Origin: an uncultured Bacillales bacterium
GTDB taxonomy: Bacteria; Bacillota_I; Bacilli_A; RF39; UBA660
NCBI GenBank assembly: GCA_947303225.1
Contig: CAMYXG010000001.1
Coordinates: 1 to 34,970, forward strand
DNA length: 34,970 nucleotides
Direction: 5' to 3'
Shown here: positions 3,302 through 33,873 of the stretch, piece after piece
Numbering within the stretch: the stretch's first letter is position 1
Layout of the letters: every line of letters starts with the position of its first letter
Made by a program: the position numbers and the translations under genes
The notes under the pieces: model-generated
Databases searched by the model: none
Told to the model about the DNA's origin: nothing
Seen by the model: the letters and a program-made list of their open reading frames with translations, nothing else

Positions 3302-3865
3302 ATGAGACTAAAAGAATTTATGATATTTATATTGATTTTTACTATTTGTTATATTGTCTTTTTTATTATCTTTGATAAGATTTGTATAATAAGGTCTATT
3401 AGAAAACAAAAAAAGTTAGCTAGGTCTTTAATTCATGGTGATCAGTATCTTATTTTTGCTAAGTTTTATGGAATTGAAGGGATTGCATCTTCTGATTTAA
3501 TATTTTCTGTTTTTGATTATTTACGTGATCACTATGAAAAATCACTTTCTTCTTTGGCTTCTTCTTATGGAGTTAGTAATTATGAAATGATTGTTATTCT
3601 TTTATATTTAGAGTACTTAAAATTAATTCCTAAAAAATGTTTTTCTTTGGATGATGATTATTTACAAAGTACTTCTTTTATTGATCAAAATATGATACAA
3701 AAATATGCTATTTTCTTTCAAAATAAGAATGATTTTCAAAGTATATCTTCTTCAGTGGGCGGAAATGTTTCTAATGACTTAGAATATATGGATAAGCATT
3801 TTTTAATGCCAGGAGTTCGTTTTGTTGATTCTAAGCTTTATTATGTAGGTGATTGTCATGAATAA
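3302..3865 (+). CDS. Hypothetical protein with a single N-terminal transmembrane segment
   Basis: Long ORF with RBS gaggt upstream and a hydrophobic N-terminus (FMIFILIFTICYIVFFIIF). It overlaps the next gene by 17 nt, suggesting an operon. No family recognised. Confidence 0.7.
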   Translation: MRLKEFMIFILIFTICYIVFFIIFDKICIIRSIRKQKKLARSLIHGDQYLIFAKFYGIEGIASSDLIFSVFDYLRDHYEKSLSSLASSYGVSNYEMIVILLYLEYLKLIPKKCFSLDDDYLQSTSFIDQNMIQKYAIFFQNKNDFQSISSSVGGNVSNDLEYMDKHFLMPGVRFVDSKLYYVGDCHE

Positions 3866-4724
3866 AAGAGTTATTATTTATTTTGTTTTGATTGTTTTCT
3901 TTTTTCTTTTTAATTTTTATTTTAGGCCTATTTCTGGTAATCCTTTTGTTACTAGTGAATATAAAAATACTTCTTCTTATATTAATGATTTATATTATAG
4001 TGAAGAATATTTTAAAAAAAAGTTACTTAATAAGGATGAATACATTATGTATGATAAAATGATTGAAGCTAGTTTGAAGAATGAATCGGAGGTTTCTATT
4101 CCTTGTGTTTCGAGAAATTGTACTAGTGCTTTTGTTAATTCTTATTATGCTATTTACTTAGATCATCCGGAATTAATTAGCTTTTTGGGAATTCATAGTT
4201 ATCGCGAAGAAGATGGTTTTCTTACTTATCATAATTATCAGAATTTGAGTAGTATTAAGAATTATTTTGCTACTAGAAGAATTGAGAGAGAAATGGAGAA
4301 TATTCGTAAAGATACTAAGAATATGAATGAAAAAGAAAAAATTATTTATGTTTATGATTATGTAGCAGCTCATCAATATGATCGCTTATTTACTTATATT
4401 GGAACTAATCAATCAGCTTATAGTTTCTTTACGAAAGGAAGTTCAGTATGTGCTGGTTTTGCTAAGGCATCTCAGCTTATTTTTCAAAATATTGGTATTT
4501 CATCTTATTTAGTATTATCTTCTGATCATATGTGGAATTATGTTGAGTATAAGGGAAAATACTATGTTTTTGATGCTACTATGGGAGCTAGTTTATCTGA
4601 TAAAAAGAATGTTCATTTTTATGATGGATTAGGGGAAACAACTACAGGTTCTAGTGTTGGATTGTTTTCGGAGAATTATCCTGTTATTGAAGAAACTGCT
4701 TTAAAGGATATTTTTAAATTATAA
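3849..4724 (+). CDS. Transglutaminase-like (cysteine protease fold) domain protein, N-terminally anchored
   Basis: GSSVCAGFAKASQLIFQNIGISSYLVLSSDHMWNYVEYKGKYYVFDAT fits the Cys...His...Asp transglutaminase-core pattern. N-terminal TM segment. Confidence 0.75.
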   Translation: MIVMNKRVIIYFVLIVFFFLFNFYFRPISGNPFVTSEYKNTSSYINDLYYSEEYFKKKLLNKDEYIMYDKMIEASLKNESEVSIPCVSRNCTSAFVNSYYAIYLDHPELISFLGIHSYREEDGFLTYHNYQNLSSIKNYFATRRIEREMENIRKDTKNMNEKEKIIYVYDYVAAHQYDRLFTYIGTNQSAYSFFTKGSSVCAGFAKASQLIFQNIGISSYLVLSSDHMWNYVEYKGKYYVFDATMGASLSDKKNVHFYDGLGETTTGSSVGLFSENYPVIEETALKDIFKL

Positions 4725-5204: not shown

Positions 5205-5275
5205 ATTTTCATCTCCTCTTTTCTTATTTTATGTTTTATTGTATAATATTATTAGTTTTTTTTAGGAGGGATTTT

Positions 5276-6433
5276 ATGGAAGGTGAATTAATGCTTGATG
5301 ATAAGAGTGTTATTACAATGAAATTATTGCATTATTTTATTACTGAAAAAAATTATAATCCCATTATATTGCAAGGGGTTGAGAATGAAATATGGTTGGA
5401 AAATTTGGAAGAAGATTGTAAGGTTGTTCGTATTGTTTCTAATTATATTCATAATGATGAACAGTTTAATTTTGATGAATTTAAGACAAAAAGAATTGTT
5501 CAGAAGATAAAGAGAAAGACATTTTCACTTCATATTAATGTGATGAGTATTTTTTTGGATATGGGAGATAATGTTTCTAGGGATATAAATCATGATTCTA
5601 ATTTGATGTGTATTAATGTAAAAGAAGAAAATGATATTAAAAAGAATGATATTATTAAAAAAGTTTTTCCTGATTTAGGAAGTAAAATGAAGTACACAGA
5701 GAAAGGTGTAGAATTATTTGCTAAAATAACAAGTGATATTAATCGACATAATCGAGAAGATGCTAGTCGAATGGAGAAATTATTTAGAAGTAAAGTTCCT
5801 TATGTTACGTATTTCTTAATCTTAGTTAATATTATATTCTTTGTTGTTCCGATGTTATTTGGTTATGATGCTTATAATTCTATTGTTGAAAAGTATTGTA
5901 TTCATGGGCCTAGTATTCGTGTAGGGCAGTATTACCGCTTATTTACTGGAATATTACTGCATGGTGGATTTATGCATTTAGCTTTTAACTGCTATTCTTT
6001 ATATGTTATTGGTGCTCAGATTGAAAACTTTTTAGGAAAAGTAAAATTTTTGGTTATCTATTTATTCTCTGGTTTGATTGGTGCTTTATTTTCTATTACT
6101 TTTGGTGGAGGTGCAGCATCTATCGGAGCTAGTGGAGCTATCTTTGGATTAATGGGTGCTTTGCTTTATTTTGGATATTATTATCGAGTATATCTTGGAA
6201 ATGTTGTGAAGAGTCAAATTCTTCCTTTGATTGTATTAAACTTAGGAATTGGATTTATTACTCCTGGAATTGATAATTTTGCTCATATTGGGGGACTTAT
6301 TGGAGGTTTGTTGATGACAATGGCTTTGGGAGTAAAAGATAAAACTTCTTCTTTTGAAAGAATAAATGGATGGATTATTGTAGCTATTTTTACTATTTTT
6401 ATTTCATATTTTGCTTTTATCTATAGTGCTTAG
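5276..6433 (+). CDS. Rhomboid family intramembrane serine protease with an N-terminal cytoplasmic extension
   Basis: HGGFMHLAFNCYSLYVIG, the catalytic GASGAIFGLMGA and AHIGGLIGG. I place the start at ATG 5276, 5 nt after RBS taggaggg, rather than at the track start 5231. Confidence 0.9.
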   Translation: MEGELMLDDKSVITMKLLHYFITEKNYNPIILQGVENEIWLENLEEDCKVVRIVSNYIHNDEQFNFDEFKTKRIVQKIKRKTFSLHINVMSIFLDMGDNVSRDINHDSNLMCINVKEENDIKKNDIIKKVFPDLGSKMKYTEKGVELFAKITSDINRHNREDASRMEKLFRSKVPYVTYFLILVNIIFFVVPMLFGYDAYNSIVEKYCIHGPSIRVGQYYRLFTGILLHGGFMHLAFNCYSLYVIGAQIENFLGKVKFLVIYLFSGLIGALFSITFGGGAASIGASGAIFGLMGALLYFGYYYRVYLGNVVKSQILPLIVLNLGIGFITPGIDNFAHIGGLIGGLLMTMALGVKDKTSSFERINGWIIVAIFTIFISYFAFIYSA

Positions 6434-9174: not shown

Positions 9175-10023
9175 ATGAAGTTATTAATAGAAGTTTGTAA
9201 TAAAAAAACATTATCTTTTATATCTTCGGATGGAGTTATTTTACCTTTAGAGCATTATGCTGTTGAATCAACTGCTTTTTTTTCTTTGGATGAGATTGAA
9301 CAAATTTCTTTGAATTATTCTGGAGAAATTTTTGTTAAGATTAATCGAAATTTATGGAATCAAGATATTGAAAAGGTACGTGATATACTAATTCAGTTGA
9401 ATCAAATGAATATTACTGGAATTCTTTTTTATGATCTGGCTATTTTGGAATTAAAAAAGGAATTAGGATTATCTATTGATTTAGTTTGGAATCAGACTCA
9501 TATGGTTCATAATACTAGAACTTGTGATTATTATTACTCTAAAGGAGTTTCATATGCTATTTTAGGAAAAGAGCTTACTTTAGAAGAGATTCAGACTATT
9601 ATTAAAAATAGTAAAATTACTAGTATGGTTGAGGTTGTTAGTAGGCCTAGTATTGCTTTCTCTAAAAGAAAATTATTAACAAATTATGGAAAAGATTTAG
9701 GACATAAGGTTTCTAATGATATAGTAATTCAGGAAAAAGTCAGTCATAAGAATATTCGAGTTTTAGAAAATCATGATGGTACTAGTTTCTTTTTAGATAT
9801 GATTATGAATGGAACTAGTATTCTTTCTGAACTATATCAAGTAGGTTGTCCTTATATAATTATGAAAGAGTATGGACTAGAAGATTGTTTTTCAGAGTTG
9901 GTTTTGGATACAATGAATTATATTCATGATGGATGTCTTGATGATACTTATGTGAAAAAGTATAAGAAGTTGGGAGATTATACTAATTTCTTTTTTCAAA
10001 AAACAATTTATAGGGTGAAGTAA
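9175..10023 (+). CDS. Peptidase U32 family protein (YrrN-like)
   Basis: U32-like pattern: GILFYDLAILELKKELG, VWNQTHMVHN and ILGKELTLEEI. It is paired with the second U32 gene as in Bacillus yrrN/yrrO. Confidence 0.75.
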   Translation: MKLLIEVCNKKTLSFISSDGVILPLEHYAVESTAFFSLDEIEQISLNYSGEIFVKINRNLWNQDIEKVRDILIQLNQMNITGILFYDLAILELKKELGLSIDLVWNQTHMVHNTRTCDYYYSKGVSYAILGKELTLEEIQTIIKNSKITSMVEVVSRPSIAFSKRKLLTNYGKDLGHKVSNDIVIQEKVSHKNIRVLENHDGTSFFLDMIMNGTSILSELYQVGCPYIIMKEYGLEDCFSELVLDTMNYIHDGCLDDTYVKKYKKLGDYTNFFFQKTIYRVK

Positions 10024-10024
10024 A

Positions 10025-11212
10025 ATGAAAAAAATAGAATTATTGTCTCCTGCAGGAGACTTGGAACGCTTGAAAGTAACTCTTTTATATGGAGCTGATG
10101 CTGTTTATATTGGAGGAGAAAAGTATAATTTAAGAGCGAATGCTCATAATTTTACATTTGATGAGATAAGAGAGGGATGTCTTTTTGCTCATCAATTAGG
10201 AAAAAAGGTTCATTTAACATTAAACATTGTTTTTCATGATGAAGATATGGATGGGGTAGAAGATTATATTGAAAAAGTAGTAGATTGTGGAATTGATGCT
10301 TTTATTGTAAGTGATCCTTTCTTAATTTCTTATATTAAAAATCATTTTCCACAGGTTGAGGTGCATTTATCTACACAAAATTCTACTAGTAATTATAAAG
10401 CAATTGAATTTTTTGAAAAAGAAGGAGTTAACCGAGTAGTTTTAGCGCGTGAACTTTCTAAAGATGAAATATTTGAAATTATTCAAAAGGTATCTTGTGA
10501 TATTGAAGTCTTTATTCATGGGGCTATGTGTACTTGCTTTTCTGGACGTTGTGCATTGTCTAATTATGTCACAAATCGTGATGCGAATCGAGGAGGATGT
10601 GCGCAAGTTTGTAGATTTTCTTTTGATTGTGAGTATGAGAAAGATTTTACTATGGCTTTGAAAGATATCAATATGGCAGAGTATATAGGAGATTTAATTG
10701 AAATAGGAGTTAGAAGTTTAAAAGTAGAGGGTAGGATGAGATCTTTGTATTATCTTGCTACAGTAATTGGGACATATCGTGAGATTATTGATTTGTATTA
10801 TGATCATCTTCTTACTTCTGATAAAATGAAATTATTTCAAGAGAGACTTGATCGAGTTGCGAATCGAGAAACATCTACTCATTATTTTATGAAGGAAGCT
10901 GATGATACGGATCAATATTATACAGGAAGAGTAGAGGTATCTAATCAAGATTATTTAGGACAAGTTATTGATTATCAAGATGGGTTTATTCAGTTTTATG
11001 AGAGAAACTATTTTGAAGTTGGTGATCTTGTAGAGGTTTTTACACCTGAAGCAGAGCATATTTCTTTTGTAGTTGAGGATTTGTATAATGATAAAAAAGA
11101 ATCTGTTTCTGTAGCTAGACATCCTGATTCTATTTATTATATTAAGTTAGAGGGAGATTATGTTATACCAGAATATTCTATGATAAAAATTATCAAAAGA
11201 GGGGAGAAATAA
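10025..11212 (+). CDS. Peptidase U32 family protein (YrrO-like)
   Basis: ELLSPAG, GADAVYIGG, VHLSTQ, VLARELS and the Cys-rich signature EVFIHGAMCTCFSGRCALSNY. Confidence 0.9.
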   Translation: MKKIELLSPAGDLERLKVTLLYGADAVYIGGEKYNLRANAHNFTFDEIREGCLFAHQLGKKVHLTLNIVFHDEDMDGVEDYIEKVVDCGIDAFIVSDPFLISYIKNHFPQVEVHLSTQNSTSNYKAIEFFEKEGVNRVVLARELSKDEIFEIIQKVSCDIEVFIHGAMCTCFSGRCALSNYVTNRDANRGGCAQVCRFSFDCEYEKDFTMALKDINMAEYIGDLIEIGVRSLKVEGRMRSLYYLATVIGTYREIIDLYYDHLLTSDKMKLFQERLDRVANRETSTHYFMKEADDTDQYYTGRVEVSNQDYLGQVIDYQDGFIQFYERNYFEVGDLVEVFTPEAEHISFVVEDLYNDKKESVSVARHPDSIYYIKLEGDYVIPEYSMIKIIKRGEK

Positions 11213-19473: not shown

Positions 19474-19962
19474 ATGAATAAAGGTATGTTAACGGTTGGA
19501 ATTATTCTTTTGAGTGTTATTGCATTATTATTAATTAATGTTTTAAATAATTATATGACTGGTGGGGAACTTGATTATTATTTAGTGAAGGAAACTGCTG
19601 ATGCTGCTATGGAAGATGCAATGGATAAAATGTATTTAAGAACATGCGGATTGCCACGTATGGATAAGGAAAAATTTGTAGAAAATTTTGTTTATCGTTT
19701 TGCAAATAGTGTCGATTCTAATCGTGAATATGATTTGAAATTTTATGACTTAAATGAAGTTCCTCCAAAGATTACTGTAGAAGTAAACTCGTTGACCGTT
19801 TTATCTTTTAATGTATCTGGAGAAAAAAATAGTAAACAAGCAGCTAATATTTCTACAAAATATAGTGCTATAGCAGAGTCTTCTTATTATAGTGATCCTG
19901 CTGTAGAAGAAGGTTTTACAAATAATATTTCTAAAAAAGATCAATGTAAACCTTATAAATAG
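19474..19962 (+). CDS. Small prepilin-like / N-terminally anchored protein (cassette A)
   Basis: RBS aaggaggg. A 4-residue leader MNKG is followed by a 20-residue hydrophobic stretch MLTVGIILLSVIALLLINVL. Two conserved Cys. Paralog of 26946-27464. Confidence 0.8.
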   Translation: MNKGMLTVGIILLSVIALLLINVLNNYMTGGELDYYLVKETADAAMEDAMDKMYLRTCGLPRMDKEKFVENFVYRFANSVDSNREYDLKFYDLNEVPPKITVEVNSLTVLSFNVSGEKNSKQAANISTKYSAIAESSYYSDPAVEEGFTNNISKKDQCKPYK

Positions 19963-26945: not shown

Positions 26946-27464
26946 ATGAATAAAGGTATGTTAACAGTTGGAATTATTTTGCTTAGTGTTATTGCTTTAT
27001 TATTAGTCAATGTACTATCTAGTTATTCCACTGGAAGTGAATTAGATTATTACTTAGTAAAAGAAACTACAGATGCTGCTATGGAAGATTCTATTGATAA
27101 GGTCTTCCTTAGACAGTGTGGTTTGTATCGAATTGATAAAGAAAAGTTCGTTGAGAGCTTTCTTTATCGATTTGCTGATAGTGTGGATGCTTCTCGTGAT
27201 TATCATATTAAATTTTATGATATTAATGAAGTTCCTCCAAAAGTAAGTGTTAAAGTAGATTCATTAACGGTTCTTTCTTTTAATGCTAAGACTGCTAATG
27301 GACAAACGAAGAATGCCGCAGATATTACTACAAACTATGATGCTATTTTGGAAACTAAATACTTATCTGATTTAGCTGTGGAAAATGGTTTGAAAGAGTC
27401 TGAACCAAGTTCAATTACTTATGATCAGTGTAGGGCATTAATTGAAATGAATGGAAAGAAATAA
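26946..27464 (+). CDS. Small prepilin-like / N-terminally anchored protein (cassette B)
   Basis: The first 20 residues, MNKGMLTVGIILLSVIALLL, are identical to the cassette A paralog. RBS aggagg. Confidence 0.8.
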   Translation: MNKGMLTVGIILLSVIALLLVNVLSSYSTGSELDYYLVKETTDAAMEDSIDKVFLRQCGLYRIDKEKFVESFLYRFADSVDASRDYHIKFYDINEVPPKVSVKVDSLTVLSFNAKTANGQTKNAADITTNYDAILETKYLSDLAVENGLKESEPSSITYDQCRALIEMNGKK

Positions 27465-27482: not shown

Positions 27483-28295
27483 ATGGGTAATTTATCTACT
27501 GGGTTAAAAAAGTTTATGCAAAATAAGAATACTGTTACAGTAGTTGGTGTTGTTGCTGCTATTATTGTATTGTATTTTGCTTATACTATGCGTATTAGTT
27601 CTGCTATTAATCCAATTCGAGTTCCTTATGCAAAGGAACAAATTCCTGCAGGTACTCAAATTACGGAAGCAATGATTGAGACGATGGAAGTACCTCCTTC
27701 AATGCTAGAGGGTGATGTAATTCAAAATACTGGTGAAATCATTGATAAGTATGCTGCTGCTGATACTGTTATTCCAGCTGGAAGTTTGTTTTATAAGCGA
27801 GCAGTGGTAGAAAAAGAACAATTGCCTGCTAATATTATTTTGGAATATCCAAAGGGATATGTTTTATATAATTTATCTGTTGATACTACTTCTACTTATG
27901 GTAATTCTGTATATCCAGGTAATTATATTGATATTTATTTAAAAGCAGTAAATGTTGTTGATGAGTCTAGTCCTGCTAATTTAACAAAAGATGCTGATAA
28001 GATTATGTTAGGAAAACTAATGGCTAATATTGAGGTATTAGCAGTTAAGGATGCTGATGGTCAACCAGTTTTCCAAAATATTGATGAGAATAGAGTTCCT
28101 GCTATGGTTGTATTTGCTCTTCCTGAGGAATACTATGTTCTTCTAAAAAAAGCAGAAGAGATGAGAACTTATGATACTTCAATTATTTTAGTTCCTACGA
28201 ATGAAAGTTTAAAAGATGAGCCAGCTGAACTTGAAATTAGTAGTGAACAATTAAAAGATTGGATTAATACTAATACTTTTTGGACAGATAATTAA
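27483..28295 (+). CDS. cpaB: Flp pilus assembly protein CpaB/RcpC-like (SAF plus RcpC-type domains)
   Basis: N-terminal TM segment. SAF-like IRVPYAKEQIPAGTQITEAMIETMEVPPSML...TVIPAGSLF, then RcpC-like GYVLYNLSVDTTSTYGNSVYPGNYIDIYL...IEVLAV...MVVFALPEEYYVLLKKAEE...IILVP. Confidence 0.75.
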   Translation: MGNLSTGLKKFMQNKNTVTVVGVVAAIIVLYFAYTMRISSAINPIRVPYAKEQIPAGTQITEAMIETMEVPPSMLEGDVIQNTGEIIDKYAAADTVIPAGSLFYKRAVVEKEQLPANIILEYPKGYVLYNLSVDTTSTYGNSVYPGNYIDIYLKAVNVVDESSPANLTKDADKIMLGKLMANIEVLAVKDADGQPVFQNIDENRVPAMVVFALPEEYYVLLKKAEEMRTYDTSIILVPTNESLKDEPAELEISSEQLKDWINTNTFWTDN

Positions 28296-28319: not shown

Positions 28320-29909
28320 ATGAACGAAAATATTTTTGATAAGTTAGATTTTGGACCTTTTCGTTCCTTATTGGATAATGATGATATAACTGATATTTCC
28401 TATGATAATAATGGTCAAATTTGGATTCGTTCTTTGACTCAGGGTTCTCTTAGAGTTGAAGTTGAAGGTGCGACTCCTGAATTTGTGGAAAAATTAGCTT
28501 TTCAATGTTCTAATGTTATGGGTACTACTTTTAATAATGCTAAACCTTTTTTAGATGCTGAATCTGCAGAGTTACGTATGAACTTTGTTCATCAAAGTAT
28601 TGCGACGAATGGGATTGCTCTTGTTATACGTAAAACTCCTGCTAAGATTCGTTTGGAAAAAGAAAAGTTAATTCAAGAAGATTATTTTACTCCTGCGATT
28701 CATGATTTTCTTATTAAATGTGTTGAGGGACATTGTAATATTATGGTTGCTGGAGAAACTGGTTCTGGTAAAACTGAGTTTGTTAAGTATTTGGCGAGTC
28801 ATACAAAGACTAATGAGAAAATTATTACGATTGAGGATACTTTGGAATTGCATTTAGATAAGATATTCCCTCAGCGTGATATTGTTTCTATGAAAACGAA
28901 TAATGTTGCTAGTTATTCTGATGTTTTAGTTACTTGTATGCGTCAGAATCCAAAATGGATTCTACTTTCGGAAGTTCGTTCCGCAGAGGCTGTTTCTGCT
29001 GTTCGTAACTCTATTTCATCAGGACATAATATTTTATCCACAATTCATGCGGATAAAGCATCTGCTATTCCATATCGTTTATATTCTTTGATGGAAACTG
29101 ATTTGGATGTTCATCAGTTTTTAACAACGATTTATCGTTATATTCAATTAGGTGTACATATTAAGGCTTTTTATAGTAAAGAATATGGAAAGTTTCATCG
29201 TGAATTAGATGAAGTTTGTGAATTTTATGTAGATGATGATAATGTTCCTCGTTCAAGGATTATTTATCAAAAACTATTTGGAAAACCTATGATGTGTAAA
29301 CCAAGTGCACATTTGGTTGAATATTTGGAAAATCAAAATATTCAAGTTCAAGATATTATTAAGGATTTGCCTGAAGAACTTCCTATACATAAATTTGAAG
29401 AGGAAAAGGATACTCAAGCAAAAGAAGGGGATACTCAAGAAGTATCTAAAGATGAAGAAACGGTTGCTCAGGAAACTGTTGCTGAAAATGATAATACTTC
29501 ATTAAATGATTCTATTGATTCTGCACAGGATGCTTCGGAGGTGGAAAAAACTCCAGATGTGATATCTCCACCAGTTTCAGTTACTCCTGATGCTAGTAGT
29601 GTTGTTTCATCTGTTCCAGAAGACGTTTCTGTAGCTTCTACACCTCCTACTGTTTCAGCACCTGCAGTTCCAGAGGTTACTCCTGTTGCGCCTACTTCTA
29701 CTGTTGAACAAGTTTCACAAGTTAATGATAGTGTAGGATCTGTTGCACCTGCTGTGAGTGTTCCGGTACCATCTGTTGCTAGTATTGCACCTGCGGTAAG
29801 TCCTATTGTTCCACAACAACAAGTTGTGATTCAAGCTAATGTTCCACCAACAGTTCCTCCTGTTGTTGGAGTTGCACCTGCTGTTGCAGTGGCTAAGCTT
29901 GGAGAATAA
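28320..29909 (+). CDS. tadA: TadA/CpaF-like (VirB11-type) secretion ATPase with a long low-complexity C-terminal tail
   Basis: Walker A VAGETGSGKTEF, Walker B-like WILLSEVRSAEA and His-box GHNILSTIHADKA. The last 170 aa or so are acidic and then P/V/S/A-rich. Confidence 0.85.
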   Translation: MNENIFDKLDFGPFRSLLDNDDITDISYDNNGQIWIRSLTQGSLRVEVEGATPEFVEKLAFQCSNVMGTTFNNAKPFLDAESAELRMNFVHQSIATNGIALVIRKTPAKIRLEKEKLIQEDYFTPAIHDFLIKCVEGHCNIMVAGETGSGKTEFVKYLASHTKTNEKIITIEDTLELHLDKIFPQRDIVSMKTNNVASYSDVLVTCMRQNPKWILLSEVRSAEAVSAVRNSISSGHNILSTIHADKASAIPYRLYSLMETDLDVHQFLTTIYRYIQLGVHIKAFYSKEYGKFHRELDEVCEFYVDDDNVPRSRIIYQKLFGKPMMCKPSAHLVEYLENQNIQVQDIIKDLPEELPIHKFEEEKDTQAKEGDTQEVSKDEETVAQETVAENDNTSLNDSIDSAQDASEVEKTPDVISPPVSVTPDASSVVSSVPEDVSVASTPPTVSAPAVPEVTPVAPTSTVEQVSQVNDSVGSVAPAVSVPVPSVASIAPAVSPIVPQQQVVIQANVPPTVPPVVGVAPAVAVAKLGE

Positions 29910-29923
29910 AAAGGGGTGATGTT

Positions 29924-30826
29924 ATGTATATTGAAGAGTTATTCATTATTATTGTCTTTGTAGTTGCTATTTATTTATATAGAAATTATCAGGGAGATAA
30001 TGTAGGTAAATATGTATTGGAACAAGTACAAGGAGCTTACGATCGTTTTGCACCTTATTCTTTTAAGGTTGTTCGTGAAAAGACAAAGCAGTTGGGAGAA
30101 GAGTATACTCCTAGACAATATGCTATACAAGTTTCTTTATTTGCTTCTTTTGCTGCAGTTGTTACTTATTTATACTTTTATAATTTAATTATTAGTATTA
30201 TTTATGCTTTAATTGCTGTATCATTTGTTCCTTATTTGACTTATTTAAGATGTAAAAAGACTTATTCCGAATTTTTATTTGAACAAGTTCAAGTATACAC
30301 TTCTAATACTATTATGGAGTTTGCTACTACGCAGTCTTTTGTTAAAGCACTAGAAGGTGTTGCCAATTCCGGTATTTTGGAAGATCCTGTTCTTAGTGAT
30401 GTTCGTCAAATGATTACTATGTCTTATGATAATGGTACGATTGATGAAGCATTAGAATATATGAGTAAGTTATATCCTTATTATATTGTTAAGAATATGC
30501 ATCAGTTGTTTTTACAAATAACTAAAGAGGGTGCTCAAAATTCTGCAGATTCTCTTGAAAATATGCAGTTAGATATCGATATGCTTGTTGAAAGTGTGTA
30601 TCGAGATCGTATTGAACGTGCATCTTTCCACAAATCCTTTTTACAGTTTGGTATTATGCTGTATTTAATGGTTATGTTAGTTCAGTATTTGTTGGGAAGA
30701 GAAACCTATTTGGTACTACTAGAACGATGGTATATTCAAGTTCTAATGCATGGAGTACTGATTATTAATACATATTTCCTTTTAAAAGGTGAAAAATACT
30801 ATAATGAAAATGTAGGTGCTGAGTAA
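29924..30826 (+). CDS. tadB: TadB-like inner-membrane platform protein (T2SSF-type topology)
   Basis: Topology is N-terminal TM, TM pair, about 130-aa soluble domain, then C-terminal TM pair. It sits immediately after the ATPase and is coupled to the next gene by a TAATG overlap. The call rests on topology and synteny, not on a strong motif. Confidence 0.6.
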   Translation: MYIEELFIIIVFVVAIYLYRNYQGDNVGKYVLEQVQGAYDRFAPYSFKVVREKTKQLGEEYTPRQYAIQVSLFASFAAVVTYLYFYNLIISIIYALIAVSFVPYLTYLRCKKTYSEFLFEQVQVYTSNTIMEFATTQSFVKALEGVANSGILEDPVLSDVRQMITMSYDNGTIDEALEYMSKLYPYYIVKNMHQLFLQITKEGAQNSADSLENMQLDIDMLVESVYRDRIERASFHKSFLQFGIMLYLMVMLVQYLLGRETYLVLLERWYIQVLMHGVLIINTYFLLKGEKYYNENVGAE

Positions 30827-31629
30827 TGGAAATACTAATCGTAGGAGCTATTATTATCTTTATTTTAATCTATAATAATACCATCGATAAAGATAAGTTT
30901 TTTGCTGATAATCAAAAGTATTTGGAAGCATTAAAAGAGGATGATTATCAGTTCTTAGTTTATGCTCGTTATGGTGAAGATGTTGATGTTGATCAACTTT
31001 ATTCTAAAAGAGTTACTTATGCATTTATTGCTTTTCTTGTTGTATTAGTATTATCCATTTCTAATAATAATAGTGTGGAGATTATTAATTCTCAATTTTT
31101 CTTAAACTTAGTTTTATCTATTGTTGTTGCTGTTGTTATTTTTAAGGTACCATATAGTCAGTTAAAAAGTTATTATAAACAGCATTTACATGAAATAGAT
31201 GTTATGTTGCCATATTATTTGAAAAGTTTAGAGATTTTAATACAGCATTATACAGTTCCTGTTGCTATTGGTAAATCTATTGGTGATGCGCCTGATATTT
31301 TTAAGCCAGGATTACGTCGTATGATAGATCGTATCAATTCAGGTGATGCATCTGTTGATCCTTATATGGAATTTGCGAATACATATCCTGTTCGAGATTC
31401 TATGAGAATGATGCGTTTGCTATATCGTTTAGGAATTGGTTCACAAGAGAAAAAACAAGAAAGATTGATGATGTTTTCAAGAACTGTATCTTCTTTACAG
31501 AATAAAGCGAGAGAGACAAAATATAAAGAACGTTTAAATCACATGGAAAGTCAAACAATGATTATGTTGGTTGTAACTGGTGTTGGAGTTATGCTTGTCA
31601 TTTTGATTTCTATGATGATGATGTTCTAA
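30826..31629 (+). CDS. tadC: TadC-like inner-membrane platform protein (T2SSF-type topology)
   Basis: Same architecture as the preceding gene (N-terminal TM, TM pair, soluble domain, C-terminal TM). Second of the usual TadB/TadC pair. Confidence 0.6.
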   Translation: MEILIVGAIIIFILIYNNTIDKDKFFADNQKYLEALKEDDYQFLVYARYGEDVDVDQLYSKRVTYAFIAFLVVLVLSISNNNSVEIINSQFFLNLVLSIVVAVVIFKVPYSQLKSYYKQHLHEIDVMLPYYLKSLEILIQHYTVPVAIGKSIGDAPDIFKPGLRRMIDRINSGDASVDPYMEFANTYPVRDSMRMMRLLYRLGIGSQEKKQERLMMFSRTVSSLQNKARETKYKERLNHMESQTMIMLVVTGVGVMLVILISMMMMF

Positions 31630-31635
31630 AAAAGA

Positions 31636-31664
31636 TTGATATTTTATTTATGATTTGTTATAAT
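31636..31664 (+). promoter_or_regulatory. Near-consensus sigma-A promoter inside the operon, in front of the small pilin-like ORF
   Basis: TTGATA (31636-31641), exactly 17 nt, then TGtTATAAT (31656-31664). Confidence 0.65.
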
Positions 31665-31698
31665 TTTATTGTATGATTAAGAAAGGATAGGTGAGTTG

Positions 31699-31866
31699 AT
31701 GAAAGCTGCTACAGGTGAATTAAACTTAACAGTTATTACTTTGATTGCAATTGCTGCTGTTATTGGATTTTTCTGGATGATGTGGCCAAAAATTCAGAGT
31801 TCTATTAATACTCAATGGGATGATATCAATACTTATAAATCAAATAGCCAAAGTAAAGGAAGTTAA
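31699..31866 (+). CDS. 55-aa Flp-like pilin candidate (absent from the ORF track)
   Basis: ATG 31699 follows RBS aaagga. The product is MKAATGELNLTVITLIAIAAVIGFFWMMWPKIQSSINTQWDDINTYKSNSQSKGS: a short leader ending in Gly, a hydrophobic helix of roughly 20 residues and a short polar tail. It occupies the flp position between the tadC-like and tadE-like genes. Confidence 0.6.
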   Translation: MKAATGELNLTVITLIAIAAVIGFFWMMWPKIQSSINTQWDDINTYKSNSQSKGS

Positions 31867-31944
31867 TTAGATTATAAAAGAATTGATTACTTAAATTGGT
31901 TATAATATGTTATTTTCATCTTATGATGATGGGAGGATTTGTCC

Positions 31945-32379
31945 ATGCAAGATGCTTTTGGTGGTATTTTAAATATTGTATTAATTGTTATATTTCTTGT
32001 TATTGTAGAGGGAATATTAGGGTTTACTGTCAACTATACAAAGGCTTTTAAAATGAAAAATATAGTTATTTCTGCAATCGAAGAATATGAAGATGCTAAT
32101 TGTACTGATACTTCAAAGAGTACTAGTGCTTGTCGTCAGAAGATTAAGAGTGGTGCTATGCGCATTGGATATTCTCCCACTCAATTGAATTGTCCTAGTG
32201 GTTCTGAATGGAAAAAAATCGATGGTTTATTTTGTGTCAAGAGATCTAAATCTCATAGTGGATATTATATTTATCGTATTGTAACACAGGTAGATATTAA
32301 TATTCCTATTGTTAGAAATATTATGGGATTTTCTTTTTTTCAAGTATCAGGAGATACTAGAGTTGTTCAAAAACAATAG
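31945..32379 (+). CDS. Pseudopilin-like protein (TadE/TadF position), 144 aa
   Basis: ATG 31945 lies 8 nt after gggagg; the track TTG 31939 is too close to the RBS. Leader MQDAFGG, then ILNIVLIVIFLVIV and VNYTKAFKMKN. Four Cys conserved with the next gene. Confidence 0.6.
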   Translation: MQDAFGGILNIVLIVIFLVIVEGILGFTVNYTKAFKMKNIVISAIEEYEDANCTDTSKSTSACRQKIKSGAMRIGYSPTQLNCPSGSEWKKIDGLFCVKRSKSHSGYYIYRIVTQVDINIPIVRNIMGFSFFQVSGDTRVVQKQ

Positions 32380-32396
32380 GATAGGTAGGTGTTTTT

Positions 32397-32831
32397 ATGC
32401 GTGATGCTCTTGGAGGAACTGTTAATATTGTAATTATTGTTGTTTTTATTGTTGTTGTAGCTTATTTAGCTTTTAATGTAAATTATACAAAGGCATTTCG
32501 TATGAAAAATAAGATTATTGCTACTTATGAGGATTATGGTGGAAATTGTGATTCAAAATGTAGAAAAGTAATTAAAAATTATGCAAATGATGTTGGATAT
32601 AATGTAGGTGGACATATCTCTTGTCAAAGTGATTGGAAACCTGATTCTACTAATTTGTTTTGTTATAGAGAAATTACTGTAAATCAAAGAACTAGTGATA
32701 CTAGTGTTGATGAAAAAGATTCAAAGCATTATTATAAGATTGCTACTAGAATTAATATTGAAATTCCCATTATACAAAATATTTTTAGTTATCAATTGTT
32801 TTGGGTTACTGGTGATACAAAGAGTTTTTAA
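32397..32831 (+). CDS. Pseudopilin-like protein (TadE/TadF position), 144 aa, paralog of the preceding gene
   Basis: Leader MRDALGG, then TVNIVIIVVFIVVV and VNYTKAFRMKN. It shares the C-terminal motifs I-x-IPI-x-x-NI and GDT. Confidence 0.6.
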   Translation: MRDALGGTVNIVIIVVFIVVVAYLAFNVNYTKAFRMKNKIIATYEDYGGNCDSKCRKVIKNYANDVGYNVGGHISCQSDWKPDSTNLFCYREITVNQRTSDTSVDEKDSKHYYKIATRINIEIPIIQNIFSYQLFWVTGDTKSF

Positions 32832-32856: not shown

Positions 32857-33873
32857 ATGAATGTAATTGTAGCAAATGAACAGCAAAATCAATTGTCTAA
32901 TTTAGATATTGATATTATAAAAAGTGTTAGTGGTGTTTATGATGCTTCTGAAATTGTAGAAATGTTCAAGAGCTTTTTTTATAGTAAGATGATTTTAGAT
33001 GTTTCTTCTCTTAAAAACTACTCTGATATAAAGACATATGAATTGTTAGTACAAGGATTAGATGCTGATAAAATTATTTTTTTATTGCCAGAAGGTAGTC
33101 AACTATGTACGCCTAATTTTTTATCGCAATTGATTTCTATTGGAATTTATAATTTTACTACTAATTTAAATGGTATTAAGTATTTATTAAAGAAACCTAA
33201 TTCTTTGAAAGATGTAGAACATATTCGCAATATGGCAACGATTCATGATTCTGATGAAGCAGGAGCTGCTGTAGCGACTGTTGCTACTACTTCAAAAGTT
33301 CAAGATGGATCTACAATTATTGGGGTAAAAAATATTACGGAACATGCTGGTGCTACTACGTTTATTTATTTATTAAAAAAAGAGTTAGCTTTTACGTATG
33401 GTGCAGACAATGTTATTGCTATTGAAATTGATAAGAATGATTTTCAATTATTTCGAGATAAAAATATGATTTCTGTTAAACAAGCGGAAATTAAGAATGC
33501 TATACAAAAGTATTCTTCAGCATCTTTTATTTTAATTGATTTGAATACTTCAACAGATGATAGTTTTTGTGGTGATGTCTTGTATTTAATGGAACCTAGT
33601 ACTATTCGATTAAATCGTTTGGTTACTAGAAATAAGTTTGTGTTTACGAAATTAGTTAATAAAAAAGTTGTTTTAAATCAGAGCTTATTATTAAATAATG
33701 ATGTTTTTGATTTTGAAAAAGAAGCGGGTATTAAAGTATTTTATAATATGCCTCCTCTTGATGAAAGAAAGAGGAATGGTGTTGTAAATGATTTTCTTTC
33801 AAAATTGGGTGTTTTGAATGAAAAGAATCATAATAGTAATTCTGGTAAAATATTTGGATTATTTCGTCGTTAA
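32857..33873 (+). CDS. TadZ/CpaE-like protein: receiver-like N-domain plus MinD/ParA-like domain with a degenerate Walker A
   Basis: STIIGVKNITEHAGATTFIYLLKKELA sits where the deviant Walker A (KGGxGKT) would be, followed by a FILIDLN Walker-B-like strand. The N-terminal ~110 aa alternate hydrophobic strand-like and polar segments in a receiver-like way, but I see no obvious phosphoacceptor. Assignment is weak. Confidence 0.45.
   Translation: MNVIVANEQQNQLSNLDIDIIKSVSGVYDASEIVEMFKSFFYSKMILDVSSLKNYSDIKTYELLVQGLDADKIIFLLPEGSQLCTPNFLSQLISIGIYNFTTNLNGIKYLLKKPNSLKDVEHIRNMATIHDSDEAGAAVATVATTSKVQDGSTIIGVKNITEHAGATTFIYLLKKELAFTYGADNVIAIEIDKNDFQLFRDKNMISVKQAEIKNAIQKYSSASFILIDLNTSTDDSFCGDVLYLMEPSTIRLNRLVTRNKFVFTKLVNKKVVLNQSLLLNNDVFDFEKEAGIKVFYNMPPLDERKRNGVVNDFLSKLGVLNEKNHNSNSGKIFGLFRR

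Follow-up and report, generated by a model that had tools for sequence, protein, structure and literature searches.

A conserved, non-canonical prepilin-like N-terminus in a Tad-like locus of an RF39-type gut bacterium

A shared N-terminal box in three adjacent genes

The window analysed here comprises 34,970 bases from an uncultured Bacillales bacterium of the RF39 lineage and is the entire contig CAMYXG010000001.1 (C1) of a metagenome-assembled genome (MAG; 58% complete, 28% GC, 1.12 Mb, 129 contigs). From about 14.2 kb to the contig end, downstream of a housekeeping part, all genes are co-directional. This locus starts with two diverged cassettes, each consisting of an Ig-like surface protein, a sortase-like enzyme, a Cys-rich giant protein and a DUF5411 protein, and continues with a CpaB/RcpC-like protein, a T2SSE-family ATPase and two polytopic membrane proteins. 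These platform genes are followed by a 55-amino-acid (aa) open reading frame (ORF), two 144-aa paralogs, a 338-aa cytoplasmic protein and small proteins resembling pilins of type IV secretion systems (T4SS). The gene order was identical in all related loci that we retrieved, and the Tad-like machine is near-universal in one family of small-genome RF39-type gut Bacilli. The subjects of this analysis are the products of three adjacent genes, namely the 55-aa pilin-like protein (below, the pilin) and the two 144-aa paralogs, pp1 and pp2 (Table 1).

The three proteins share a short N-terminal box. Translation of the pilin starts at the ATG at position 31699, which is preceded by a ribosome-binding site, giving the N-terminus MKAATGELNLTVITLIAI; a TTG at 31696 was ruled out as the start, with 114 of the 120 listed database gene calls beginning at MK. 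For pp1 we favoured the ATG at 31945, with the ribosome-binding site GGGAGGA 8 nt upstream and the N-terminus MQDAFGGILNIVLIVIFLV, over the TTG at 31939 from which the ORF was listed. The pp2 start is the ATG at 32397, also behind a ribosome-binding site, with the N-terminus MRDALGGTVNIVIIVVFIV. The box common to the three genes reads M-(K/R)-(D/E/A)-(A/S)-x-G and stands directly ahead of about 21 hydrophobic residues. The motif G-x-(L/V)-N-(I/L)-(V/T)-x-I was found in pilin, pp1 and pp2 alike. Both the three N-termini and this motif had been proposed in the initial annotation of the window, and the ribosome-binding sites and gene calls back the starts on which they depend. By eye, promoter-like hexamers precede the pilin (TTGATA-17-TATAAT, 31636-31664) and pp1 (TTGATT...TATAAT, 31883-31912), which suggests separate, strong transcription of the subunit genes.

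We next consider how far the box is conserved. The family consensus is MK(A/E)A(T/S)G for the pilin and M-(R/K/Q)-(D/E)-(A/S)-x-G-G for the pp proteins. Gly6 is kept in essentially all of more than 300 orthologs, and a box conserved to this extent does not arise by chance. For the pilin, a family of more than 1100 database clusters, no exception to Gly6 occurred among 118 database and 76 locus sequences, and M1, K2, A4, G6, E7, L8, N9, T11, V12, I13 and T14 are invariant or nearly so in the same sequences. Residues 1-14 are practically invariant in close relatives; throughout the bacterial family, distant members included, M1, K2, A4, G6, E7 and T11 remain invariant. Among 131 pp sequences, Gly6 is present in 130 and Gly7 in 124, position 3 is Asp or Glu in 126 and position 4 is Ala or Ser in every one; a second near-invariant block, NVNYTKAFRMKNKII, follows the helix. 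Judged from these alignments, the non-canonical, prepilin-like N-terminus of the three adjacent genes is real and strongly conserved.

In a few orthologs, the tag contains no basic residue. These include pilins that begin MQAATGE (L121, 2369-2536; L122, 5812-5979) and pp proteins that begin MEDAYGG, MDNAIGG or MNEGVGS, as well as pp1 of the window itself (MQDAFGG).

The initial annotation had described a prepilin layout in five proteins of the locus, the other two being the DUF5411 products of the cassettes with a supposed site MNKG|. This extension did not survive the comparison of orthologs. Position 4 of the DUF5411 proteins is Gly in 36, Ala in 31, Ser in 10 and another residue in five of 82 sequences, and distant orthologs begin MKES, MKWS or MKET. 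The would-be leader is only 4 aa long and ends in G, A, S, V or T, which is not a prepilin leader. An AlphaFold2 model of the second copy (predicted local distance difference test score, pLDDT, 79) has a transmembrane helix at residues 3-28, a break at the invariant G30 and an alpha/beta domain, and gave no significant match in a fold search of the PDB. Rather than prepilins, the two DUF5411 proteins look like ordinary accessory proteins with a plain N-terminal membrane anchor. As their -1 position is not conserved, only three of the five proteins have a common motif.

The window pilin has no match in Pfam or NCBIfam. Its relatives are most strongly conserved over the first 30 residues and variable at the C-terminus; many distant pilins have Cys-rich C-terminal extensions of up to 94 aa beyond this conserved part, and several relatives have tandem pairs of pilin genes (e.g., L036 8722-9201, L039 12768-13210 and L040 12999-13496). 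The paralogs pp1 and pp2 are 44% identical. Their family was found in 101 of the 121 genomes of the bacterial family and comprises 340 database clusters, all unnamed and none with a Pfam domain. None of 121 pp family members matched PF07811 at E ≤ 1, and no pilin family of Pfam was matched. The pp proteins have four conserved cysteines (C51, C55, C76 and C89), a variable, insertion-prone head and, a few residues before the stop, the motif (V/I)(T/S)G(D/N)TK(S/T)(F/Y), which in pp2 is ITGDTKxF. In its AlphaFold2 model (pLDDT 84; predicted TM-score, pTM, 0.73), pp2 is predicted to form a helix at residues 3-46, a second helix at 53-66 and three strands. This modelled outline, a 44-residue N-terminal helix with an alpha/beta head, is pilin-like, although a comparison of the model with the PDB gave no significant fold match and no solved pilin. 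None of pilin, pp1 and pp2 has a C-terminal sorting signal (an LPXTG-type motif with a hydrophobic tail). One relative (L042, 10817-12391) encodes a 524-aa ORF with a sortase-like domain between its pilin and pp genes (E-value of 1e-12 with the locus sortase profile).

Table 1. Positions of the candidate subunit genes, the other genes of the Tad-like locus and the rhomboid gene in the window
Feature	Coordinates	Strand	Evidence and remarks
55-aa pilin-like protein, Flp-sized major-subunit candidate	31699..31866	+	MKAATG box, E7, ~22-residue hydrophobic helix
pp1, 144-aa minor-subunit candidate	31945..32379	+	MQDAFGG N-terminus, then transmembrane helix; no Pfam family above threshold
pp2, 144-aa minor-subunit candidate	32397..32831	+	MRDALGG N-terminus, then transmembrane helix; four conserved Cys
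DUF5411 protein, cassette copy 1	19474..19962	+	PF17424, E 7e-40; plain N-terminal anchor, outside the shared box
DUF5411 protein, cassette copy 2	26946..27464	+	PF17424, E 1e-44; plain N-terminal anchor, outside the shared box
CpaB/RcpC-like protein	27483..28295	+	SAF domain above Pfam threshold
TadA/VirB11-type traffic ATPase, low-complexity C-terminal tail	28320..29909	+	PF00437 (T2SSE), E 1.5e-27, above cut-off
Two polytopic membrane proteins, TadB and TadC positions	29924-30826 and 30826-31629	+	invariably present, strongly conserved
338-aa cytoplasmic protein, TadZ position	32857..33873	+	conserved in all loci
Rhomboid intramembrane serine protease	5231..6433	+	PF01694, E 2.3e-36; housekeeping region, outside the locus

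Class III features, prepilin peptidase and canonical pilins

A class III signal is defined by a hydrophilic leader, 6-26 residues long with Gly as the last, and by 21 mainly hydrophobic residues after it, with a near-invariant Glu at position 5 (Glu5); the shortest classical leaders, such as that of P. aeruginosa PilA, have 6 aa, Gly at -1 is 'absolutely critical' for prepilin peptidases, Glu5 is 'always dispensable for processing', and the positive-inside rule orients the signals (Berry and Pelicic, PMC4471445). Both the pilin and the pp proteins have a hydrophilic leader that ends in Gly, 6 aa in length, and about 21 hydrophobic residues right after it. Neither has an acidic residue at +5: the pilin has Glu at +1 and Thr at +5, and the pp helix contains no conserved acidic residue. 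Both fail the rule [GAS]-x4-[DE] used by PilFind. On this point the initial annotation, which had Glu5 replaced and Asn or Thr at +3, was right about the missing Glu5 and too general about Asn at +3, which holds throughout the family for the pilin alone (among the pp proteins, 91 of 131 sequences have it). The net charge of the leader is 0 or -1 in the pilin; of 139 pp sequences, 113 have a leader of net charge 0 and 23 a negative one, and the C-side of the helix carries +2 to +4. The window pilin has no EY after the Gly and matches neither Flp_Fap nor Flp1_like. A lone Flp1_like match, to one pilin of a sister family, stayed below threshold (21.8 bits against a cut-off of 33.5). Of the components expected of a type IV filament machine, a T2SSE-family traffic ATPase is present in the locus and an A24 peptidase in the genome; a T2SSF platform protein was not recognised at the sequence level.

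The A24 peptidase is encoded outside the window. A PF01478 profile search at E ≤ 1 gave one match in the whole genome, on contig 23, and none in the window, in agreement with the initial annotation, which had seen no prepilin peptidase there. The enzyme (C23:3594-4361) is a 255-aa protein of the PilD type with a CxxC...CxxC N-domain, encoded immediately after pilC. With an unlinked PilD encoded elsewhere, the lack of a peptidase in the window is ordinary, a trivial solution that the annotation had itself allowed for. Peptidases of this family were found in 119 of the 121 genomes of the bacterial family (one match in 117, two in 2), in 296 of 300 genomes of the order (each at least 90% complete) and in 12 of 13 locus carriers outside the family. 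Placed copies, where compared, all adjoin pilC and none lies inside the Tad-like locus. Genomes that lack the locus have the peptidase just as well, and there it acts for the type IV pilus. As A24 is near-ubiquitous with or without the locus and always next to pilC, co-occurrence was dropped as a measure of dependence.

The sole exception among the locus carriers, a MAG from outside the order (G132), was traced to a mis-binned contig. No A24 peptidase was found in the three genomes of its family, and it had been a candidate for a locus carrier free of the enzyme. The contig with the locus (C76; L146 and L155) encodes a second asparaginyl-tRNA synthetase with 64% identity to one from an RF39 genome, whereas the other copy in the bin (C34) matches a genus-mate at 58%. 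Considering this foreign second synthetase, the contig is probably mis-binned, the public MAG looks chimeric, and no verified A24-free carrier is left. On the same contig, the Tad-like genes continue into T4SS-like genes (VirB6-, VirB3- and VirB4-like, by size and topology only) and then a large protein.

The genome of the window also encodes canonical type IV pilins. Despite its incompleteness, at least 11 proteins have a basic leader followed by G|F(T/S)L(I/V)ELL with Glu5. Such pilins are encoded at C5:16321-19218, C18:8243-10369, C22:3258-7304, C75 and C83:757-3819, with further ones at C11:868-2114, C34, C36 and C7:15940-17369; a C11 protein, for example, begins MKNEKG|FTLVELL. Several proteins with the canonical signal are giants of 700-1350 aa headed by a pilin sequence. 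This repertoire of type IV pilins is large for a genome of about 1-2 Mb. Considering that the canonical pilins of the same genome are so uniform, the signals at the locus, without Glu5 and with a charge of 0 or below, are truly deviant.

The genes around the three candidates are in part recognisable. The CpaB/RcpC-like protein matched RcpC (26.4 bits) and TIGR03177 (E-value of 2e-10), both under the cut-off. For the traffic ATPase, the top NCBIfam matches were VirB11, the TadA family and FlaI, likewise under the cut-off. The two membrane proteins that follow had no match to T2SSF (PF00482) in Pfam and none to PDB sequences by phmmer, and a profile of the TadC-like protein aligned to the genome's own PilC with an hhalign probability of 1%; they may be called TadB- and TadC-like from position and topology. 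Similarly, the 338-aa protein, which had no match in Pfam or among PDB sequences, would be TadZ-like from its position. A 520-aa membrane protein was considered as a hidden aspartyl peptidase and rejected: two conserved Asp residues flank a transmembrane helix on opposite sides, and there is no GxGD motif.

Processing of the candidate subunits

We propose that pilin, pp1 and pp2 are filament subunits of a divergent Tad-like, i.e., type IV filament, machine. The 55-aa protein would be the Flp-sized major subunit and the two 144-aa proteins minor subunits. The box would be a minimal leader, removed on the cytoplasmic face after Gly6, or possibly after Gly7 in the minor subunits, and the cutting enzyme would be the single, unlinked PilD-type peptidase of the genome, which would also serve the canonical pilins. 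The most economical mechanism is a cut by PilD after Gly6, and we give it about an even chance of being correct. The invariant Gly6, the class III layout, the pilin-like conservation profile, the CpaB-like and T2SSE context and the available A24 peptidase all support this proposal; from them we infer that cleavage happens, at which site and by which enzyme.

Several observations weigh against removal of the box by PilD. The leaders are without net positive charge, unlike those of the canonical pilins (+1 to +4). Leader residues such as A4 and the Asp or Glu at position 3 are near-invariant, which is unusual in a peptide that is to be discarded. A cut at Gly6 would make the +1 residue Glu in the pilin and Gly in the pp proteins, with no Glu5 in either. 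In the homologous pilins of Erysipelotrichaceae, position 6 is Glu and the only Gly is residue 9, with Glu7 common to both groups. Searches of Pfam, NCBIfam and the PDB linked the proteins to neither Flp nor TadE nor any solved pilin, by sequence or by fold. Finally, since A24 accompanies pilC and occurs in genomes without the locus, its co-occurrence with the locus cannot discriminate. A double-glycine (C39) leader was considered for MRDAxGG and rejected on inspection, the tag being too short and without the leader consensus.

The Erysipelotrichaceae pilins came to light through the profile of the TadC-position protein, which has distant homologs in other families of Bacilli, mostly in Erysipelotrichaceae MAGs and in the cultured Erysipelothrix inopinata (CP060715, 262360-278506, L159; others L124 and L147-L154). 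Their locus has seven genes, encoding a DUF5411-like protein, RcpC, T2SSE, two membrane proteins, a pilin of 47-48 aa and a protein of about 110 aa; between the end of the TadC-position gene and the pilin gene there is a 17-nt overlap. All sister pilins begin MKAFFEEYGLV without variation (MKAFFEEYG in 83 sequences). In some gene calls and extended ORFs, the residue before the Lys is L, V or I, which may represent an alternative start codon, so the N-terminus of the sister pilins is fixed, with no longer leader. The pilins of the two lineages align without gaps from Met1 (hhalign probability 84%, E-value of 7e-6). M1 and K2 are common, RF39 Gly6 corresponds to Glu6 of the sister pilins, Glu7 to Glu7 and Asn9 to their only Gly. 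The presumed -1 Gly is thus not positionally conserved, whereas Glu7 is. The pp proteins of RF39 and the Erysipelotrichaceae protein of about 112 aa did not align significantly (hhalign probability 6%), and a phmmer search with a sister pilin found no match among PDB sequences.

Two readings of this alignment remain: either the lineages have separate cut sites, at Gly6 in RF39 and Gly9 in Erysipelotrichaceae, or neither is cut and Glu7 replaces Glu5. Under the latter, the subunits would be leaderless, the box would be the mature N-terminus, with Glu7 in the role of Glu5, and it might be recognised in the cytoplasm by the platform, the ATPase or the TadZ-like protein, in the way that PilM is bound by the N-terminal peptide of PilN. 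We regard uncut subunits as possible, with the balance tilted against them. The idea gains from the ungapped alignment, which keeps M1, K2 and E7 and pairs Gly with Glu at position 6, from the sister pilins being fixed at MKAFFEEYG with no longer leader, from the extreme conservation of every box position and from the neutral or acidic leaders; in addition, three sister pilins are annotated by JGI as 'Flp pilus assembly pilin Flp'. If just M-K precedes the mature end, the E-Y of the sister pilins would presumably fall at +5/+6 of the Flp rule. On the opposite side, the box end K-E-A-T-G resembles what we take to be the leader end of alphaproteobacterial Flp, K-D-E-S-G. The Flp resemblances can be argued both ways, with E-Y-G as a mature motif or K-E-A-T-G as the end of a leader. 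Against uncut subunits, a hydrophilic M-K-E tip would need room in the filament core, and a Gly6 that is invariant in two protein families is most simply explained as the -1 residue. A three-residue indel is possible in so short and hydrophobic an alignment, and the sister pilins would then be cut after Gly9. Moreover, leader removal is not known to be dispensable in any type IV filament system (PMC4471445). That the Tad-like machines of both RF39 and Erysipelotrichaceae use subunits with no removable leader and assemble independently of a prepilin peptidase can be suggested only tentatively.

The three proteins might not be pilins at all and instead be small bitopic membrane components with an N-out/C-in orientation, or basal parts like PilN and PilO, in which case the box would be a mere conserved membrane-proximal motif. 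PilN and PilO are built of a transmembrane helix, a long helix and a small alpha/beta domain, a layout shared by the pp proteins. By the positive-inside rule, the charges of the pp proteins (0 on the N-side, +2 to +4 on the C-side) also predict N-out/C-in, and neither a solved-pilin fold nor a Pfam pilin family was matched. Still, we consider this unlikely. The 55-aa protein is Flp-sized, stands in the flp position and is often tandem-duplicated like major pilins, and its gene has its own strong promoter-like site; the four conserved Cys and the variable, insertion-prone head of the pp proteins are typical of exposed domains, and the C-terminal extensions of related pilins are Cys-rich.

Removal of the tag by a protease other than PilD, whether a sortase-fold enzyme of the locus, the rhomboid or signal peptidase I, is highly improbable. 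The initial annotation had raised the sortases as the only proteases encoded in the window, an overstatement considering the rhomboid and two Peptidase_U32 family genes (9175-11212); a transglutaminase-like gene (3849-4724) is a further protease-fold gene. Sortase-like genes are fixed in the loci of close relatives, and A-T-G in the pilin box loosely resembles the T-G of sortase motifs. However, the sortase domains act extracellularly and the tag would be cytoplasmic, the pp proteins have F, L or I rather than T before the Gly, and only one of ten distant loci has a sortase within 20 kb. Two genomes (G082 and G045, 94% and 98% complete) keep the locus and an intact box with no sortase genome-wide. 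The wrong topology and these sortase-free carriers exclude processing by sortase. The rhomboid AarA is known to clip a short N-terminal extension off TatA, but the rhomboid of the window is encoded in the housekeeping part, about 8 kb ahead of the locus, and is an unlikely candidate. Against a Sec signal, the hydrophobic segment is the best-conserved part of the pilin and hence not disposable. As a whole, the initial observation is partly confirmed and its interpretation partly supported.

At stake are two rules treated as near-universal in bacterial type IV filaments, the removal of a leader with Gly at -1 and the assembly-essential Glu5. In this widespread gut lineage, one genome encodes many textbook pilins beside a second filament-like machine whose subunits retain the Gly but have neither Glu5 nor a basic leader, and whose six-residue tag is near-invariant. 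If PilD cuts these proteins, they show how far its substrate rule relaxes and raise the question of how subunits without Glu5 polymerise; if it does not, prepilin processing is no longer universal. In the leaderless case, the protein would start two residues before the classical mature end of Flp, with Glu at position 7, and would belong to the first type IV filament system without leader processing. Either way, motif-based finders such as PilFind ([GAS]-x4-[DE]) miss both the pilin and the pp proteins. The homologous locus in the cultured E. inopinata makes the question testable at the bench.

Comparison with known type IV filament systems

Among known systems, the closest in layout are the Flp, TadE and TadF prepilins of Tad (type IVc) systems. 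There too, a major subunit of about 50 aa follows the platform genes and precedes one or two larger minor subunits, a CpaB/RcpC-like protein and a TadA-type ATPase are encoded nearby, and a short leader ending in Gly stands before the hydrophobic helix. Unlike them, the locus has no Glu5/Tyr6 'Flp motif', its subunits match neither Flp_Fap nor TadE, its leader of 6 aa is not basic, and its platform proteins have no T2SSF match. Tad prepilins are cut by TadV, CpaA or FppA, whereas this genome has no truncated TadV-type peptidase and only the pilC-linked enzyme of the PilD type.

The type IVa/Com pilins of the same genome resemble the three proteins in having a leader of 5-9 residues ending in Gly, about 21 hydrophobic residues and the same only candidate peptidase. 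They differ in their basic leader and Glu5, where the locus proteins are neutral or acidic with E or G at +1. Archaeal class III signals, processed by FlaK, PibD or EppA, are alike in that Glu5 is often absent and leaders are very short (PMC4471445); their enzymes and basic -2/-3 residues are absent here, in a bacterium with a PilD-type enzyme.

Gram-positive Tad-like loci 'without any apparent prepilin signal' have been described before (Imam et al. 2011, PMC3244431). These loci and the TANB77 cluster (PMC11680825) are, like the present one, divergent clusters of the tadA/tadC/rcpC type in Firmicutes with small single-transmembrane proteins that fail the [GAS]-x4-[DE] rule. In those loci tadV and tadZ are recognisable by sequence or fold, whereas here there is no linked peptidase, the TadB, TadC and TadZ sequences are unrecognisable, and the RF39 locus is joined to sortase cassettes and T4SS-like genes. 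Finally, the seven-gene locus of Erysipelotrichaceae differs in the MKAFFEEYG start of its pilin and in lacking sortase cassettes, a TadZ-like gene and T4SS genes, but shares with the RF39 locus a homologous TadC-like protein, a homologous pilin and a similar gene order.

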